The position numbers and the translations under genes are program-made. Shown here piece by piece: positions 3,178-48,579 of a stretch of 57,510 nucleotides of DNA (the first letter of the stretch is position 1; each line of letters starts with the position of its first letter). The notes below the pieces were generated by a model. It searched no databases. It was not told the DNA's origin and saw only the letters and a list, made by a program, of their open reading frames with translations. This DNA is from Bacteroidota bacterium (GTDB taxonomy: Bacteria > Bacteroidota > Bacteroidia > UKL13-3): assembly GCA_947485745.1 (NCBI GenBank), contig CANKQY010000006.1, positions 1 through 57,510 on the forward strand, in the 5' to 3' direction.

Positions 3178-3729
3178 TTATTTTGAAATGTAAGTATTTA
3201 ATAATTTATGTTTTGCTTTCCTAAGCTTTCCAGAAATGCTGGCATCATAAAGTTTATCTTCCATCTGTATTATCAGACCTCCAATAATTTCAGTATCTAC
3301 CGTAGTTTCAAGGATTACTTTTTTACCAGTTTGTTTTTCAAGAAATGATTTTACCTCATCAATAACTTTGCTACTAACAGTAACAGCAGTTTTAACTTTT
3401 GCGGTGGTAATTTTATTGATAACATTATACTGCGCAATGAAAGCATTGGCAATATCCAGTAAATAATATTCGCGTTTTTTATCGATAACAATTTCGAAAA
3501 ATGAAATCGTAAGTTTATTAAAGGAAGCACCAAATATTTGTTTCAGGATGGTCAATTTCTTGTCGCCTTTAACAATTGGATTTCTAAACAAACTTTCCAA
3601 TGCGTGATTTTGTTCAATCGCAGCCTTGAACGCCAAAATATCGGCATTGATCGCCTCGAGCAAGTTTTGCTTAATCGAAAGATCGATCAGTGATTTGGCA
3701 TACCTGCCGGATACTCTTTGTTCAGACAT
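3178..3729 (-). CDS. atpH: F1 ATP synthase delta subunit
   Basis: RYAKSL N-terminus, IIGGLIIQ..DKLYDASI C-terminus, operon position. Confidence 0.97.
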   Translation of the reverse strand: MSEQRVSGRYAKSLIDLSIKQNLLEAINADILAFKAAIEQNHALESLFRNPIVKGDKKLTILKQIFGASFNKLTISFFEIVIDKKREYYLLDIANAFIAQYNVINKITTAKVKTAVTVSSKVIDEVKSFLEKQTGKKVILETTVDTEIIGGLIIQMEDKLYDASISGKLRKAKHKLLNTYISK

Positions 3730-3730
3730 G

Positions 3731-4225
3731 TTAATTTAAAGTGATTGATTTTAAATTTTCGTTTACGAAAGACTCTTGCTGAGCACGGTCCTCCATTTTC
3801 TTGCGCAAAACCTTTTCGGCTAAGTCAACCGAAAGCACAGCAACTTGAGTTTTCAACTCATTTAATGCTTTAATTTTGGCGGATTCAATAGATTCGTTGG
3901 CCTTGGCAATAATTTTTCGACCTTCTTCATCGGCAGATTTTTTTGCTTGGGCAATGATATTTTCTTTGATATCATTGGCTTCCTTCAGCATTAAATCGCG
4001 CTCAGCACGTGCTTGGTTCAAGAGTTTTTCGTTATCTGCCTTTAATGCACTCATTTGAACACGAGCTTCTTCAGCGGAATTCAAAGCATTATTGATTGAT
4101 TCTTCTCTCTCTCTAATCGAATTTAAGATAGGCTTCCAGGCAAATTTTGATAAGATAAACAATACGATACTAAACGTAATGGTCATCCAAAAAAGTAGTC
4201 CTAAACCAGGTTTTACTAATTCCAT
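3731..4225 (-). CDS. atpF: F0 ATP synthase subunit b
   Basis: N-terminal TM helix, KFAWKPIL..I.ERE, long coiled coil. Confidence 0.97.
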   Translation of the reverse strand: MELVKPGLGLLFWMTITFSIVLFILSKFAWKPILNSIREREESINNALNSAEEARVQMSALKADNEKLLNQARAERDLMLKEANDIKENIIAQAKKSADEEGRKIIAKANESIESAKIKALNELKTQVAVLSVDLAEKVLRKKMEDRAQQESFVNENLKSITLN

Positions 4226-42034: not shown

Positions 42035-43453
42035 CTACTTATGAAGAACCATTAATTTCTTGGTAATTTTAGAACGGCCAAAATCAAACTCCACATAATA
42101 AGTGCCATTTTCAAAACCACTTACATCCAATTTATAATAGCTTGCATTTACCTCAGCTGTAAATACTTCTTTTCCATTATCGGTAAGCACTTTAATTTTA
42201 TTAAATGGCCATGTTTTAATTTCAGTATAGTCGGAAGCCGGGTTAGGAACCAAGTTTGTATTTCTATTTAACCTACCCTCAAACTCTTTTAAATTTGCAG
42301 GGTTCACATCATTGAATAAATATTGATAAGCCTGAGCAAATTCACGTTTCCAATACCATTCACTATGCGCACCATCGGCATGTATAATTACTGAGGAATT
42401 GTATGCTAAAAATCCTTTGCGCCTAAGCATATCATCATATTTATTGATGTTACTTACCATAGTAGCACTTTCATTTGAACCAGCAACATAATAGGCCAAA
42501 ATTCCAGGATCGATTGCAGCCTTTTGAGCAAAATCGTATAATGAATCACTGATATACAAAGCAGGTGAAAATAAACCTACTTTACCAAATACCTGTGGAT
42601 TTGATAAAGCAGCGAATAGCGAAATATTAGCCCCTAAAGAACTTCCTGCTATAGCAGTGTGCTTTGGATCGGAGTAGGTTCTATAAACAGAATCAATAAA
42701 TGGCTTCAAGGTTTGAGCCAAAAAATTTACATACGCTTTACCCTCTCCACTTCCATATTGAGGGTGCCCGTAAGGACTATATTCATTGATACGCTTTACC
42801 CCACCATTATCAATACCTACTATTATACACCCCAAATCACCTGATTTTTCTAATTTCACCAACGATTCATCTACGCCCCATTCGCCAGAAAAAGAGGTTT
42901 TGGCATCAAACAAATTCTGCCCGTCTTGCATGTACATCACAGGATATCTTTTGGTGGTTGTATTTTTGTAATCAGATGGCAGATAAATCCATACTCTCCT
43001 GCTCCTATTTAACTGAGGCATGTAAAATGAATTGGAGATTATTGAAACATTGTTAAGCGCTGTAGAACCTGTATCTGCCGGACTATTCAGCAAATCTATC
43101 CATCCCGCAATATTGTTTTCAATGCTTAAATTTGCACTATAGGTAAAAGTTCTATTGGCAATATTTGCGCCAGCACTAGTTGATTCAACTTTTGGCCAAC
43201 TACCCCGAGTAAATTTATATTGGGCTTCACCATTTCTGCTTGGCAAGGTAATAGTATAGCTTGAGCCTGTTTTAACAAGTTTATACGTCGCATCACCTGG
43301 GTTCCAATTATTGAAATCCCCTGCAATATAAATATCATCTGAAATTGGCGTATTGGCTGGTAAATTATTAACAGTAATGGTAACTTGTGCAAATGAAACC
43401 TGCATGAATAATGACATAAAAACAAGTTGAAACCCTAATAATTTATTTTTCAT
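42035..43453 (-). CDS. Secreted esterase: starch-binding-like (CBM20/48-like) domain, alpha/beta hydrolase and T9SS type A CTD
   Basis: IYIAGDFNNW, YKFTRGSW..VE; YPVMYMQDGQNLF, GSSLG, HSE.YW; PNPA...G.Y......KKL. Confidence 0.88.
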   Translation of the reverse strand: MKNKLLGFQLVFMSLFMQVSFAQVTITVNNLPANTPISDDIYIAGDFNNWNPGDATYKLVKTGSSYTITLPSRNGEAQYKFTRGSWPKVESTSAGANIANRTFTYSANLSIENNIAGWIDLLNSPADTGSTALNNVSIISNSFYMPQLNRSRRVWIYLPSDYKNTTTKRYPVMYMQDGQNLFDAKTSFSGEWGVDESLVKLEKSGDLGCIIVGIDNGGVKRINEYSPYGHPQYGSGEGKAYVNFLAQTLKPFIDSVYRTYSDPKHTAIAGSSLGANISLFAALSNPQVFGKVGLFSPALYISDSLYDFAQKAAIDPGILAYYVAGSNESATMVSNINKYDDMLRRKGFLAYNSSVIIHADGAHSEWYWKREFAQAYQYLFNDVNPANLKEFEGRLNRNTNLVPNPASDYTEIKTWPFNKIKVLTDNGKEVFTAEVNASYYKLDVSGFENGTYYVEFDFGRSKITKKLMVLHK

Positions 43454-43511
43454 TTAGCTAACATTTGAATTTATTACGAACTTAAGCATTACATTCCTAT
43501 TTTTGCCTTTC

Positions 43512-44066
43512 ATGCAAGCAATATTATTGTTTATTCAACTCTTTCTTATCAGCGCATCCAATCCGCTTGAGAAGATTCCCTTAACAGATTTAATGGGCAA
43601 ACTAACCTATATTCAATTAAGCGCGGCAAGCAAAGGAACAGTCATTTATTTCCTGTCTCCAGAATGTCCTTTATGCCAGAGCTATTCCTTAACCATCAAA
43701 GAAATTGAAATAGCTTATTCAAAAAAAGGATTTCAATTTTATGCCATTATTCCTGGAAAAGAATTTACAAAAAACGAGGTAATTATTTTTAAAAATAAAT
43801 ATAAACTATCAGCGCTTCCATTTCTGTTTGATCCAAACCTAGCGTTAGCAAAATATACCAAAGCAAGCATTACTCCTGAAGTGTTTGTTTATGCGCCATC
43901 AGGGCAAAAAGTATACAATGGCAGAATCGACAACTGGGCCTATGAACTGAGCAAAAAAAGAACAGTAATAACTGAAAATGACCTCAGAAATGTTCTTAAA
44001 AAATTGGATCAAAACGTTTCCATAAAACCTTACCAAACCAAAGCAGTAGGATGTTTTATCAATTAA
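43512..44066 (+). CDS. Exported redoxin (thioredoxin fold, AhpC/TSA-like); likely start ATG 43512
   Basis: CPLC, cis-Pro motif ITPEV, YNGRID, C-terminal AVGC; the track's TTG at 43503 lies inside a TATTTTTG promoter box. Confidence 0.85.
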   Translation: MQAILLFIQLFLISASNPLEKIPLTDLMGKLTYIQLSAASKGTVIYFLSPECPLCQSYSLTIKEIEIAYSKKGFQFYAIIPGKEFTKNEVIIFKNKYKLSALPFLFDPNLALAKYTKASITPEVFVYAPSGQKVYNGRIDNWAYELSKKRTVITENDLRNVLKKLDQNVSIKPYQTKAVGCFIN

Positions 44067-45415
44067 GTAAAATAACCTTATTCGCATGCTTATTAGCAAT
44101 GCTTGCATGTAATAACAACTCCAATATTCCTAAGGAAGACGAAGCTGTTTTATTTGCAGAACACATAGCTCCTATAATCTATACCAATTGCAGCAAATGC
44201 CATAGCCAAGATGGTGCTGCTCCATTTCCACTTTTGAGTTTCCAAGACATTGCCAGCAAGGCTAAATTGGTGGCCTATGTTACAGAAAAAAGGTTAATGC
44301 CACCATGGCCTGCCGACCCAACATACACGCACTTTGCCAATGAAACGTATCTAAGCGCTGAACAAATACAATTAATCCAAAGATGGGCTGCAGGCAATTG
44401 TTTACCCGGCGACACTGCCTCCTTGGTTCAGCCCGAAAATTTATTAAAATCATTGAATTTAGGGAAGCCCGACCTAATAGTAAAAATGCCAAAACCTATC
44501 AAGGTTCCAGGCAATAATACCGATTTGTTTATGGTGGTAAAAGTACCTTTTGAATTGCCACAAGATACCTTCATCAAAGCCATTGAATTTGTGCCTGGAA
44601 AAAAGCGTTTGGTACACCACATGAATGCGCATATCATTCAGTTTGAACCTAACAAAAAATCCAATTTATGGAGCGGTCAATTTGCCGTGAACCAAGATCA
44701 AACAAAGAGTGAAACCATACACAAAGAGCTCAATTTATTGAACGACGATGGCAGCTATGCACCCATGACACCTTCTGTTTGCAATTACTTACCAGGCTCT
44801 CAATTTAGTTTGTATCCTGAGGAAATTGGTGGTTATAAAATTGGCAAAAAGAATGCATTTTACTTAAACGACATGCATTTTGGTCCAAGTGCAATTGACG
44901 AAGTTGATAGCTCTTATTTTAAAATTTACTATGCAGACAAGGCTCCAAAAAGGCCAGTGGCAGAATTCCAAATTGGCACCTTAGGATTGGCTCCAGTTGA
45001 GCCTAAACTAATTGTTCCAGCTAGAGAAGTAAAGAAGTTTACCATTGATTTTCGAGTGCCAGCCGACATCTCAATTCTAACCATTGTGCCACATATGCAC
45101 CTCATTGGCAAAACCTATTTAGCCTATGCCATTAAACCAAGCGGAGATACCATTCGCTTAATACGCATCAACAATTGGGACTTTAGGTGGCAATATTTCT
45201 ATCAACCCAAAACACTCCTAAAAATCCCAAGAGGCTCGGTTATTCATGTAGAAGGAACATTTGATAATACCGCCAATAACCCCAACAACCCATTTAGTCC
45301 GCCAAGGGAAATTGCAGAAAAAAATGGCAGCATGAAAACTACGGATGAAATGTTTCAGCTTATTGTCACGTACTTGCCTTGGCAGAATGGGGATGAGCAG
45401 ATTTCGCAGGAATAG
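44051..45415 (+). CDS. Lipoprotein: cytochrome c domain fused to a copper type II (PHM/DBH-like) monooxygenase-like domain
   Basis: Lipobox MLAC (C20); CSKCH (47-51); MPPW; VHH, MHF, PHMH, WDFRWQ..Y, DEM. Confidence 0.8.
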   Translation: MFYQLSKITLFACLLAMLACNNNSNIPKEDEAVLFAEHIAPIIYTNCSKCHSQDGAAPFPLLSFQDIASKAKLVAYVTEKRLMPPWPADPTYTHFANETYLSAEQIQLIQRWAAGNCLPGDTASLVQPENLLKSLNLGKPDLIVKMPKPIKVPGNNTDLFMVVKVPFELPQDTFIKAIEFVPGKKRLVHHMNAHIIQFEPNKKSNLWSGQFAVNQDQTKSETIHKELNLLNDDGSYAPMTPSVCNYLPGSQFSLYPEEIGGYKIGKKNAFYLNDMHFGPSAIDEVDSSYFKIYYADKAPKRPVAEFQIGTLGLAPVEPKLIVPAREVKKFTIDFRVPADISILTIVPHMHLIGKTYLAYAIKPSGDTIRLIRINNWDFRWQYFYQPKTLLKIPRGSVIHVEGTFDNTANNPNNPFSPPREIAEKNGSMKTTDEMFQLIVTYLPWQNGDEQISQE

Positions 45416-45416
45416 C

Positions 45417-45451
45417 TTATGGCTTCTGGCAGCTGGCTTCTAGCTGCTGGC
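45417..45451. repeat. Heptamer tandem array nnnTRGC (five units); more units at about 45882-45902 and inverted at 45930-45957
   Basis: TTATGGC TTCTGGC AGCTGGC TTCTAGC TGCTGGC; inverse GCCAGAA GCTAGAG GCTACAA GCCAGTT. Confidence 0.75.
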
Positions 45452-45479
45452 AATAGCAGGTCATTGCTTGTACATCGTA

Positions 45480-45794
45480 CGTCACCCTGAGCCTGCCGAA
45501 GGGCGGTCACCCTGAGCCTATTACCGGTAACTGAGCTTGTCGAAGTACGGTCACCCTGAGCCTATTACCGGTCACTGAGCCTGTCGAAGTGCGGTCACTG
45601 AGCCTATTACCGGTCACTGAGCCTGTCGAAGTGTTGTGCGGGAGTGCAGAAATTTATCTGTTAAGGAATAGCTGGTGCTTTCATTGAAGCAGGCTTCGAC
45701 AAGCTCAGCCACCGGTTATTCGACAAGCTCAGCCATCGGTGCTTCGACAAGCTCAGCCGCCGGTTATTCGACAAGCTCGGACACCGGTTATTCC
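45480..45794. repeat. REP-like cluster of the same family as 1-165: forward array 45480-45633 and inverted array about 45692-45794
   Basis: Repeated GTCAC(CC)TGAGCCT(GTCGAAG/ATTACC); four copies of TTCGACAAGCTC on the other arm. Confidence 0.9.
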
Positions 45795-45963
45795 ATAAGC
45801 TAAAACACCCATCAAATAATATTCAACAGGCGTTTGGTTCAAACCGAAAAATTAACGAGAGAATAGAAAAAAGCTGCTTGCCTCTGGCTTCTGGCTGCAG
45901 GCAATAAGAAATAAAATATTTATAATTTTGCCAGAAGCTAGAGGCTACAAGCCAGTTGCATTT

Positions 45964-46383
45964 TTAACAATATTCTTCGAAAGCTGCTTTCAAGTTTTGT
46001 GAAATCATTTCAGCGCTGCGTCCTTCAATGTTGTGGCGTTCGATGAAATGTACCAAATTGCCATCTTTAAATAAGGCTATGGCAGGAGATGATGGAGGAT
46101 AAGGCAAAGTGAACTCGCGGGCTCTGGCAACAGCGTCTGCTTCTTGGCCTGCAAATACAGTTAATAATTCGCTTGGCTTTTTTACAGTAGTGTTAATAGC
46201 ATCAATAACACCCGGGCGACAAGTACCAGCGGCACAACCGCAAACACTGTTGAATACCAATAATTGAGTACCTTGTTTGCTGTTCATGGCGTTTTCAACT
46301 TCAGTAGCATTCATCAAAGAAGTAAAACCTACGGTTTCTAATTGTTGTCTCATTGGAGCAACCAACATTTCTGGATATGGCAT
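45964..46383 (-). CDS. BrxA/BrxB-family bacilliredoxin
   Basis: NSVCGCAAG..RP, TVFAGQ, PPSSP.IALFKDG, ERH.IEG. Confidence 0.93.
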   Translation of the reverse strand: MPYPEMLVAPMRQQLETVGFTSLMNATEVENAMNSKQGTQLLVFNSVCGCAAGTCRPGVIDAINTTVKKPSELLTVFAGQEADAVARAREFTLPYPPSSPAIALFKDGNLVHFIERHNIEGRSAEMISQNLKAAFEEYC

Positions 46384-46577: not shown

Positions 46578-47891
46578 ATGTCAGACGCAAAAAGTGCTCT
46601 ATCCTACAAAGTAAAGGATATTACCCTAGCAGAATGGGGAAGAAAAGAAATCCGTTTAGCCGAGGCAGAGATGCCAGGTTTGATGACCATCCGCAAAGAA
46701 TATGGCGATGCGCAACCTTTAAAAGGTGCTCGTATTGCTGGTTGTTTACACATGACCATCCAAACTGCAGTATTAATTGAAACCTTAAAGCATTTAGGTG
46801 CAGAGGTTACTTGGAGTTCTTGCAATATATTCTCAACCCAAGATCATGCTGCTGCTGCTATTGCTGCTGCAGGTACTCCAGTTTTTGCTTGGAAAGGCCA
46901 AAACGAAGAAGAATTTGATTGGTGTATTGAGCAAACTTTGAAAGCATTTGAAGGTGGCAAGCCTTTGAACATGATTTTAGATGATGGTGGAGATTTAACC
47001 AACATGGTTTTTGATCGTTACCCAGAATTAACAGCTGAAATTAAAGGTTTATCTGAAGAAACAACTACTGGCGTTCACCGCTTGTATGAGCGCATGAAAA
47101 AGGGAACTTTGGTTGTGCCAGCTATCAATGTAAACGATTCGGTTACTAAATCTAAATTTGATAACAAATACGGATGTAAAGAATCTTTGGTAGATGCAAT
47201 CAGAAGAGCTACAGACATTATGATGGCTGGTAAAGTGGCTGTTGTTGCTGGTTACGGTGATGTTGGAAAAGGTTCAGCAGAATCTTTGCGTGGTGCTGGT
47301 GCGCGTGTTTTGGTGACAGAAATTGATCCAATTTGTGCATTACAAGCTGCAATGGATGGTTTTGAAGTAGTAACAATGGAAGAAGCTTGCAAGCGTGCAA
47401 ACATTTTCGTAACAGCTACAGGAAACTTGAAAATTATTACTGAGCGTCATTTCAGAGCAATGCGCGATAAATCTATCGTATGTAATATTGGTCACTTCGA
47501 CAACGAAATTGACATGGCTTGGTTAAACGGTAATTATGGTTCAACCAAAAACACCTTGAAACCACAAGTTGATATTTATGATATTGATGGAAATGATATC
47601 ATCGTATTGGCAGAAGGACGTTTAGTGAACTTAGGTTGTGCTATGGGGCACCCAAGTTTTGTAATGAGTAATTCATTCTCGAACCAAACTTTGGCTCAAA
47701 TAGAATTGTGGAACCACAGTGCTAATTATGAGAACAAAGTATACGTTCTTCCTAAACATTTAGATGAGAAAGTTGCCTATTTACACTTAGCACATATTGG
47801 TGCTACTTTAACTGTACTAGAAAACGAACAAGCAGATTATATCGGCGTAAAGGTTGAAGGACCATTTAAAGCTGAGATGTACAGGTACTAA
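46578..47891 (+). CDS. ahcY: Adenosylhomocysteinase
   Basis: [42 protein letters not shown]. Confidence 0.99.
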
Positions 47892-48111: not shown

Positions 48112-48579
48112 TTACTTCGCGTCTGCAATTACCTTATCTAGTATTTGAAGAAAGGATGCGGCATCATGGTAACCGGCATCTATCATCAATGATTTCTTTT
48201 GCGGATCAATGAAATAGGTGGTTGGAAAACCAGTGCTTTCACCTCTGCTTAATTGTGCAAAGAAATCTCTGGCAGTGAAGGTTTGTCCGTCTATATCGTA
48301 GGTTAAATCTCTGAGCTCAGGATTAAATTTTATGACCACAAAATGCTTGTTCAATTTTTTAATTACCTCTGCATTTGAATAAGTATCCCTATCCATCTTT
48401 TTGCACCAACCACACCAATCTGTATAAGCATCTACCAATACAATTTTCTTTTCTTTAATGGCAGCTGGGTAGCCTTCATTCCACTTATACCATTTTAATT
48501 CATCTGCTTTTGGCTTGGTAAATGAACTCAAAAAAATGAATCCCAATACCATGATAAAAATATTTCTCATTTGCTTCAA
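48112..48579 (-). CDS. Exported thioredoxin-family protein
   Basis: Signal peptide, YTDWCGWCKKMD, cis-Pro GFPT. Confidence 0.9.
   Translation of the reverse strand: MKQMRNIFIMVLGFIFLSSFTKPKADELKWYKWNEGYPAAIKEKKIVLVDAYTDWCGWCKKMDRDTYSNAEVIKKLNKHFVVIKFNPELRDLTYDIDGQTFTARDFFAQLSRGESTGFPTTYFIDPQKKSLMIDAGYHDAASFLQILDKVIADAK

Follow-up and report, generated by a model that had tools for sequence, protein, structure and literature searches.

The non-coupled two-copper monooxygenases, namely peptidylglycine alpha-hydroxylating monooxygenase (PHM), dopamine beta-hydroxylase (DBH) and tyramine beta-monooxygenase, are textbook animal enzymes, and the PHM/DBH two-copper core is used in animals for the synthesis of amidated peptide hormones and noradrenaline. 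Haem domains that deliver single electrons to a copper enzyme are known from the copper nitrite reductases with a fused cytochrome c, and from cellobiose dehydrogenase, whose cytochrome feeds lytic polysaccharide monooxygenases. These cytochrome-copper systems have other copper folds and chemistry, however, and no PHM-type copper pair or thiol-redox partner is known in any of them. A 2020 review tabulates PHM and DBM under eukaryotes only (PMC7435645). The present analysis concerns a pair of overlapping genes at positions 43512-45415 (forward strand) of contig CANKQY010000006.1 (assembly GCA_947485745.1), from a freshwater Bacteroidota bacterium of the UKL13-3 lineage; the whole 57,510-nucleotide stretch of this contig that was analysed is referred to as the window. 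The second gene (44051-45415) encodes a 454-residue protein, here called the enzyme, in which a predicted cytochrome c domain precedes a core that is truly, if distantly, homologous to that of PHM and DBH. The first gene (43512-44066) encodes a 184-residue redoxin, here called the partner, which fits the peroxiredoxin-like 1 (PrxL) type.

The closest described relative of the partner is the periplasmic PrxL of Caulobacter crescentus. According to its description, a disulfide forms between two cysteines that lie far apart in the chain, the DsbD-family protein ScsB holds the protein reduced, no peroxidase activity was detectable and the function was left undefined (Cho et al. 2012, PMC3322552). 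A peroxiredoxin role for the partner family was ruled out on the basis of that undetectable activity. The Caulobacter protein and the uncharacterised structures 2ywi, 2cvb and 3u5r have in common with the partner a thioredoxin/AhpC-like fold, a cysteine at the first CxxC position and another in a C-terminal GCxI(K/E) motif; the C-terminal cysteine of 2ywi is noted in PMC3091736. The Caulobacter protein is also exported. Unlike it, the partner described here has a second cysteine in its CPLC motif and a defined client to which it is coupled. Fourteen control genomes, one of them that of Caulobacter, gave no match to Pfam Cu2_monoox_C, so the Caulobacter PrxL probably serves another client. The literature search, whose coverage stopped short of subscription journals, found no study of a bacterial haem-fused PHM/DBH-like enzyme.

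Conservation of the Proposed Cofactor Ligands

The enzyme begins with a signal peptide and lipobox (residues 1-20, ending LAMLAC20; 44051-44110). The hydrophobic N-terminus and LAC lipobox predict a lipoprotein, with the partner probably exported. The predicted mono-haem cytochrome c domain follows (approximately residues 31-136; 44141-44458), and contains the CxxCH motif (C47-C50-H51, 44189-44203) and a candidate distal ligand, Met83 (44297-44299). The remainder comprises two beta-sandwich domains with an approximate border. The first (about residues 137-300; 44459-44950) carries the CuH-type ligands His189/His190 (44615-44620) and His276 (44876-44878), and the second (about residues 301-454; 44951-45412) carries the CuM-type ligands His348/His350 (45092-45100) and Met434 (45350-45352), together with an invariant glutamine, Gln381.

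Among 16 close relatives (57-77% identity), the lipobox C20 and the ten proposed ligands (C47, C50, H51 and M83; H189, H190 and H276; H348, H350 and M434) were all invariant. A diverse alignment of 57 members, with 28-77% identity and a mean column identity of 35%, contained just 18 invariant columns, and all ten ligands were among them; the other eight were P84, W112, G249, Q381, N406, N410, N413 and E433. The full ten-residue pattern was present in 134 of 151 sequences (150 cluster representatives and the window protein), and the 17 exceptions comprised 15 with gaps at a truncated end and two with substitutions (P0136 and P0219). The conservation of the ligands is far above chance. The residues named in an earlier first-pass annotation, which was made from the DNA sequence alone, are all present in the protein and all lie within the invariant columns.

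Homology and Fold of the Copper Core

The first-pass annotation had proposed a PHM/DBH-like core from the order and approximate spacing of these residues, and both profile and structural comparison bear this out. The family profile (A2) matched human DBH (PDB 4zel) with an E value of 3.1e-9. When relatives carrying a type IX secretion system (T9SS) sorting domain and partner-fused relatives were added (profile A6), DBH was matched at 6.2e-9 and PHM at 7.7e-8. In the alignment of A6 with PHM, the HH pair of the family corresponds to H107/H108, the following histidine to H172, the HxH motif to H242/H244, and the invariant glutamine (Q381) to Q272; the PHM numbering used here agrees with the mutant names in PDB titles. 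Pfam Cu2_monoox_C was matched by 44 of the 57 members at E ≤ 1e-3, and the T9SS-type relatives exceeded the curated cut-offs of both Pfam families, PF01082 and PF03712 (35.9 and 37.4 bits; 33-45 bits). An NCBIfam search of the window protein returned nothing useful.

The AlphaFold2 model of the enzyme had a mean predicted local distance difference test score (pLDDT) of 92.9 and a predicted template-modelling score of 0.87. With this model, all 27 Foldseek rows shown down to rank 31 were DBH or PHM (E 1.1e-14 to 1.5e-8), and rank 32 was a capsid (E 7.2e-6). VIA-align gave a Z score of 19.4 for DBH (root-mean-square deviation (rmsd) 3.6, 285 residues aligned) and 15.8-19.2 for 25 PHM entries, and the next fold (PNGase and jelly-roll capsids) followed at 7.6. 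As the narrow C-terminal profile (A4) found no PDB match at E ≤ 10, the sequences gave no alignment of Met434 with PHM M314. In the structural alignment, model residues 137-448 span PHM 55-328, and M434 and M314 each lie 14 residues before the end, which places M434 at M314. Met434 is the probable equivalent of M314 on its invariance and on these alignment ranges, as distinct from a residue-level superposition.

Compared with PHM (PDB 1phm, 1opm and 1sdw), the enzyme shares the two-domain beta-sandwich, over 229-261 aligned residues, as well as the HH...H and HxH...M pattern and the glutamine at the position of Gln272. It differs in its low identity (13-16%), in an insertion between the HH pair and the third histidine (model helix 217-226), in having valine for Arg240, and in its N-terminal cytochrome c domain, lipid anchor and bacterial host; there is no PAL partner, and ascorbate is an unlikely donor. 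DBH was the best match by both profile and structure, and also has an extra domain ahead of the copper core. In DBH this is a DOMON domain, and some DOMON relatives bind haem. The N-terminal domain of the enzyme, in contrast, is a predicted cytochrome c with covalent haem and not a DOMON beta-sandwich; the enzyme also lacks a dimerisation domain and is only 19-20% identical to DBH. The relationship of the core to the non-coupled two-copper monooxygenases is remote but real. The protein is very probably a real haem and two-copper redox enzyme, and the conserved His3 and His2Met sites, with a glutamine equivalent to Q272, argue for PHM/DBH-type chemistry; monooxygenase activity is considered likely, with somewhat less assurance.

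Haem Domain

The fusion to a cytochrome c, also put forward in the first-pass annotation, was supported by the haem ligands and by profile matches, and more modestly by the model of the isolated domain. C47, C50, H51 and M83, which did not vary in any of the 57 members, were also invariant in 24 of 24 sequences of a separate domain alignment, and Met83 lies within an invariant MPPWPAD motif. Among the matches of profile A2 were hydrazine synthase alpha, in its haem domain (5c2v, E 1.2e-3), and Geobacter PccH (4rlr, E 0.012), and Pfam Cytochrome_CBB3 matched five of the 57 members. The model of the isolated domain had a pLDDT of 80.9. When it was compared with 48,161 chains in VIA, the top three matches were all c-type cytochromes: PccH with a Z score of 7.0 (rmsd 2.0, 74 residues), YhjA with 5.2 and FoxE with 5.1, with the next match at 3.3. 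The predicted structural resemblance to c-type cytochromes is modest but consistent.

A check for a cytochrome c maturation system had also been suggested. The host genome contains cytochrome c assembly genes, with two Cytochrom_C_asm matches over the Pfam cut-off (G000:C4:66965-69204), and ResB had no match in the genome, which is 96.5% complete.

Partner Protein

The partner gene starts with an ATG at 43512, and a TTG lies upstream at 43503; homologues of the partner begin at the methionine equivalent to 43512. The 16-nucleotide overlap with the enzyme gene (44051-44066), as originally described, is exact. The enzyme ATG (44051-44053) falls within the GGA-TGT codons for Gly180-Cys181 of the partner, both of which are invariant. 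The protein carries three cysteines of interest, Cys52 (43665-43667) and Cys55 (43674-43676) in the CPLC motif and Cys181 (44052-44054) near the C-terminus. Its Pfam matches, to Redoxin (E 1.1e-5) and AhpC-TSA (E 2.1e-5), were both slightly under the cut-off.

Across 62 partner sequences, C52 and C181 were 100% conserved and C55 was 89% conserved. In an alignment of 22 partners, the second cysteine of the CxxC motif was replaced by serine or valine in six, and it was missing in all 15 partner domains that are fused to an enzyme; the C-terminal GC motif was retained in most of these. The CPLC pair, on which the first-pass annotation had centred its redoxin, is thus not the conserved feature, whereas the C-terminal cysteine that it had also pointed out is invariant together with C52. 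The partner profile (A3) matched 2ywi (E 2.1e-30), 2cvb (1e-28) and 3u5r (5.9e-24), with a common CP...GCxI(K/E) signature; ResA was matched only at 9.2e-14, and other envelope thiol-disulfide oxidoreductases were also matched. The partner therefore fits the PrxL type and not a classical CxxC redoxin, with Cys52 and Cys181 as the predicted redox pair. It presumably belongs to cd02969, the CDD entry for peroxiredoxin-like 1, on the basis of the shared signature.

Two other types were considered and rejected. An apocytochrome reductase of the ResA/CcmG type was rejected on the replacement of the second CxxC cysteine described above and on the E value for ResA as against 2e-30 for 2ywi. A copper chaperone of the Sco1/SenC type was rejected on the motif, which is CP(L/I/F/Y)x with no CxxxC, on the absence of histidine among the eight invariant columns of the partner, and on the lack of a SCO1-SenC Pfam match at E ≤ 0.1.

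The host genome encodes one DsbD_TM protein and, besides the partner, two further PrxL-like genes. The first of these (G000:C23:16896-18940; locus L087, 29-2073) retains both cysteines and lies 41 nucleotides downstream of a gene for a 466-residue YHYH protein (PF14240, E 1.7e-55) with a T9SS sorting domain, which may be another histidine-rich exported client of a PrxL-type partner. The other (G000:C24:12704-13201; locus L088, 1456-2022) has no signal peptide, and both conserved cysteines are replaced (CNSSPIS... and ...VGTPIV). In three other genomes, the surroundings of PrxL paralogues that are not linked to an enzyme gene were uninformative.

Linkage, Fusion and Distribution

The gene neighbourhood was analysed in the best 80 of 556 genomic relatives, 74 of which were evaluable, and the partner was adjacent to the enzyme gene in 63. 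It lay directly upstream with the identical 16-nucleotide overlap in 39 loci and directly upstream with other spacing in 18; a gap of 31-300 nucleotides separated the two genes in two loci, and the partner was directly downstream in four. In one further locus, not counted among the 63, it was 2.7 kb upstream. In L035 (approximately 3726-4001) and L023 (approximately 3720-3947), 226-274 nucleotides separate the two genes, with no overlap; the spacer in L035 is a short-period repeat whose minus-strand frame spells CCLLFAV many times. A gene for a di-haem cytochrome c peroxidase (CCP_MauG) adjoins the enzyme gene in two loci (L070, 5050-6117; L095, 4328-6271).

The partner domain was fused to the enzyme in 14 of the 150 best cluster representatives, at the N-terminus in 11 and at the C-terminus in two, with one doubled. 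In a quick FastTree phylogeny of 109 cores, which had no bootstrap and some flagged long branches, 13 fusions fell in one clade and the fourteenth fell within the Bacteroidota clade, so that fusion must have occurred at least twice. Loci with the partner downstream formed a single clade, and linked versus unlinked states required at least eight changes.

An even sample of 301 Bacteroidota genomes contained the enzyme in 21. Twenty enzyme loci were fetched from this sample, and a partner was present within 3 kb in six. Longer forms of the enzyme accounted for 12 of the 14 partner-less loci, and a T9SS sorting domain was found in six of the eight enzyme ORFs (open reading frames) scanned. Two groups can be distinguished in the family: lipoproteins linked to a partner, and T9SS forms that for the most part have none beside them. 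The only positions separating the two were A88, G309 and I398, which do not amount to a docking signature. The linkage to a redoxin, which the first-pass annotation had described for this one locus, is real but not universal.

The family search returned 2,635 matches. Among clusters at 50% identity, 10,708 were matched at E ≤ 1e-3 and 1,306 at E ≤ 1e-30, and bacteria thus hold a very large branch of the fold. By Atlas cluster labels, which serve as leads only, the family extends to Acidobacteriota and Myxococcota.

Proposed Mechanism and Alternatives

We infer the metal content, the O2 chemistry, the direction of electron flow and the role of the partner as follows. The CuM-type copper (His348, His350 and Met434) would activate O2 and attack a C-H bond of the substrate, and the CuH-type copper (His189, His190 and His276) would provide the second electron. 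In a bacterial envelope without ascorbate, the fused haem (Cys47, Cys50, His51 and Met83) would relay single electrons to the two coppers. The co-translated PrxL partner (Cys52/Cys181) would most likely tie the enzyme to the reductive thiol pathway of the envelope, in the order cytoplasmic thioredoxin, DsbD-type transporter, PrxL, and serve either as electron source or as keeper of the reduced state. The partner is placed in this pathway because of its conserved dithiol, the translational coupling, the repeated fusion and the Caulobacter data. The explanation as a whole, a periplasm-facing haem-fused lipoprotein of PHM/DBH type whose PrxL partner is linked to a reductive thiol pathway, is held to be marginally probable. 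The first-pass interpretation is partly supported; the assignment of the enzyme is well founded in homology and cofactor sites. The electron route from thiol to haem to copper, as the first-pass annotation had envisaged it, is plausible; that the partner is the reductant of the catalytic cycle is a possibility given somewhat less than even chances. More tentative still is a self-contained thiol-driven envelope oxygenase, in which electrons would pass from thioredoxin through the DsbD-type protein, PrxL and haem to the copper pair, and which would hydroxylate a substrate of the envelope or environment.

Several results weigh against the main explanation. The window protein itself was below the Pfam cut-off for Cu2_monoox_C (residues 339-409, E 1.1e-3, 18.9 bits against 23) and had no match to Cu2_monooxygen. 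A single-sequence phmmer search against solved structures found no relative of it. Its haem domain was below the cut-off for Cytochrome_CBB3 (E 0.019), the isolated haem-domain model had no Foldseek match at E ≤ 1e-3, and its best VIA Z score stayed under 8. The partner was absent within about 4 kb in 10 of the 74 close loci and within 3 kb in 14 of the 20 even-sample loci, which shows that the core also occurs with no partner beside it; PrxL-type genes were, however, present elsewhere in five of five tested genomes with an unlinked enzyme, so non-adjacency is no proof of independence. No substrate clue was found, and we know of no natural precedent for a dithiol protein reducing a c-type haem within a catalytic cycle. 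Apart from the lipobox cysteine, C47 and C50 of the haem site are the sole cysteines conserved in the enzyme; classical thiol-disulfide exchange could therefore be directed only at these two, which suits a role of the partner in maturation as well as one as donor.

In the maturation alternative, which is considered unlikely, the partner would be a dedicated maturation or repair factor, and it would be a respiratory cytochrome c, or some other donor, that supplied the haem with electrons for catalysis. The partner could act on the apo-cytochrome CxxCH as a reductant, like ResA and CcmG, on copper as a reductant or carrier, like TlpA and Sco, or on oxidised sites as a repair factor. In favour of this alternative are the small set of cysteines conserved in the enzyme, the match of the partner profile to ResA and other envelope oxidoreductases, and the position of PrxL genes near scsB, 'suppressor of copper sensitivity', in other bacteria (PMC3322552). 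Against it, the second CxxC cysteine that ResA/CcmG chemistry needs is missing from six of the 22 partners and from all 15 fused domains, and the partner has neither the CxxxC...H motif nor the Pfam match of a Sco protein. In three of the 10 partner-less close loci (L070, 2335-2925; L074, 1697-2290; L075, 3357-3947), the gene directly upstream of, and overlapping, the enzyme gene encodes a DUF420 membrane protein, of a family that is an assembly factor for haem-copper oxidase, and this also speaks for the maturation alternative. On the other side, the haem domain also occurs in the T9SS-type relatives, where no partner gene lies alongside, and translational coupling and repeated permanent fusion suggest a stoichiometric subunit.

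The genetic coupling and the fusions would also fit with electron flow in the reverse direction, in which the copper domain oxidises the partner dithiol or a small substrate and the haem passes the electrons on to the respiratory chain or O2, making the enzyme a copper-dependent thiol oxidase or dehydrogenase and not a monooxygenase. Two one-electron coppers could divide the two electrons of a dithiol, and electrons leave many periplasmic dehydrogenases by way of a c-type haem domain. This is nonetheless judged improbable, as the His3 and His2Met set and the glutamine aligned with PHM Gln272 are conserved as in O2-activating enzymes, and the Caulobacter PrxL is kept reduced, in a reductive pathway, according to PMC3322552. 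The least likely of the alternatives, and one given very little weight, is a bacterial peptide-amidating enzyme that would act as a functional counterpart of PHM on glycine-extended peptides. The first-pass annotation had listed amidation among the possible substrate chemistries, and the fold and copper ligands are common to PHM. Arg240 of PHM, two residues before the first CuM histidine, anchors the substrate carboxylate; Val346 aligns with it, the family consensus there is a small hydrophobic residue, and peptide amidation is therefore unlikely. DBH also scores at least as high as PHM. The earlier remark that no PAL-like lyase gene lies nearby was correct, and NHL repeats (the PAL lyase fold) were found only in one giant ORF (at least 2875 residues) on another contig. 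Finally, a conserved small ORF beside the gene pair was looked for and none was found; the 550-nucleotide downstream spacer is repeat DNA.

Beyond the first-pass annotation, the analysis adds the PrxL type of the partner with its Cys52/Cys181 pair, the published tie of that type to DsbD-family reduction, the split between linked lipoprotein and T9SS forms, at least two independent fusions, and the absence of the substrate-anchoring arginine of PHM. The findings point to hydroxylation chemistry in the envelope of common freshwater and soil bacteria. As all copper ligands are intact and the enzyme has its own haem, it could serve as a genetically tractable system, independent of ascorbate, for the study of long-range electron transfer from one copper to the other, and it could assign a function to PrxL-type proteins. 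If the thiol-driven oxygenase were true, it would be the first ascorbate-independent non-coupled two-copper monooxygenase, and the first client and function assigned to the PrxL family.

Neighbouring Genes and Sequence Features

The spacer downstream of the enzyme gene (45415-45964) contains two tandem arrays that are mutually inverted and form a large imperfect palindrome (45487-45801). The first array comprises 3.4 copies of a 44-nucleotide unit (45487-45633) and the second 4.5 copies of a 24-nucleotide unit (45695-45801), and the arms are 83-88% complementary. Nowhere in the window is the GC content higher than in the interval 44001-46000 (0.42). An Rfam search of the window gave no match.

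Two thiol-redox genes lie nearby, both on the reverse strand: Disulph_isomer (PF06491, E 6e-58) at 45964-46383, and an exported DUF255/Thioredoxin_7 protein (E 2e-16) at 48112-48579. An S-adenosylhomocysteinase-like gene (46578-47891) sits between them, and one of the related loci (L038) retains this trio downstream of its enzyme gene. On the other side of the gene pair, a divergent gene (42035-43453, reverse strand) encodes a 472-residue secreted esterase (PF00756, E 6e-31) with an N-terminus weakly resembling a carbohydrate-binding module and a C-terminal T9SS sorting domain.

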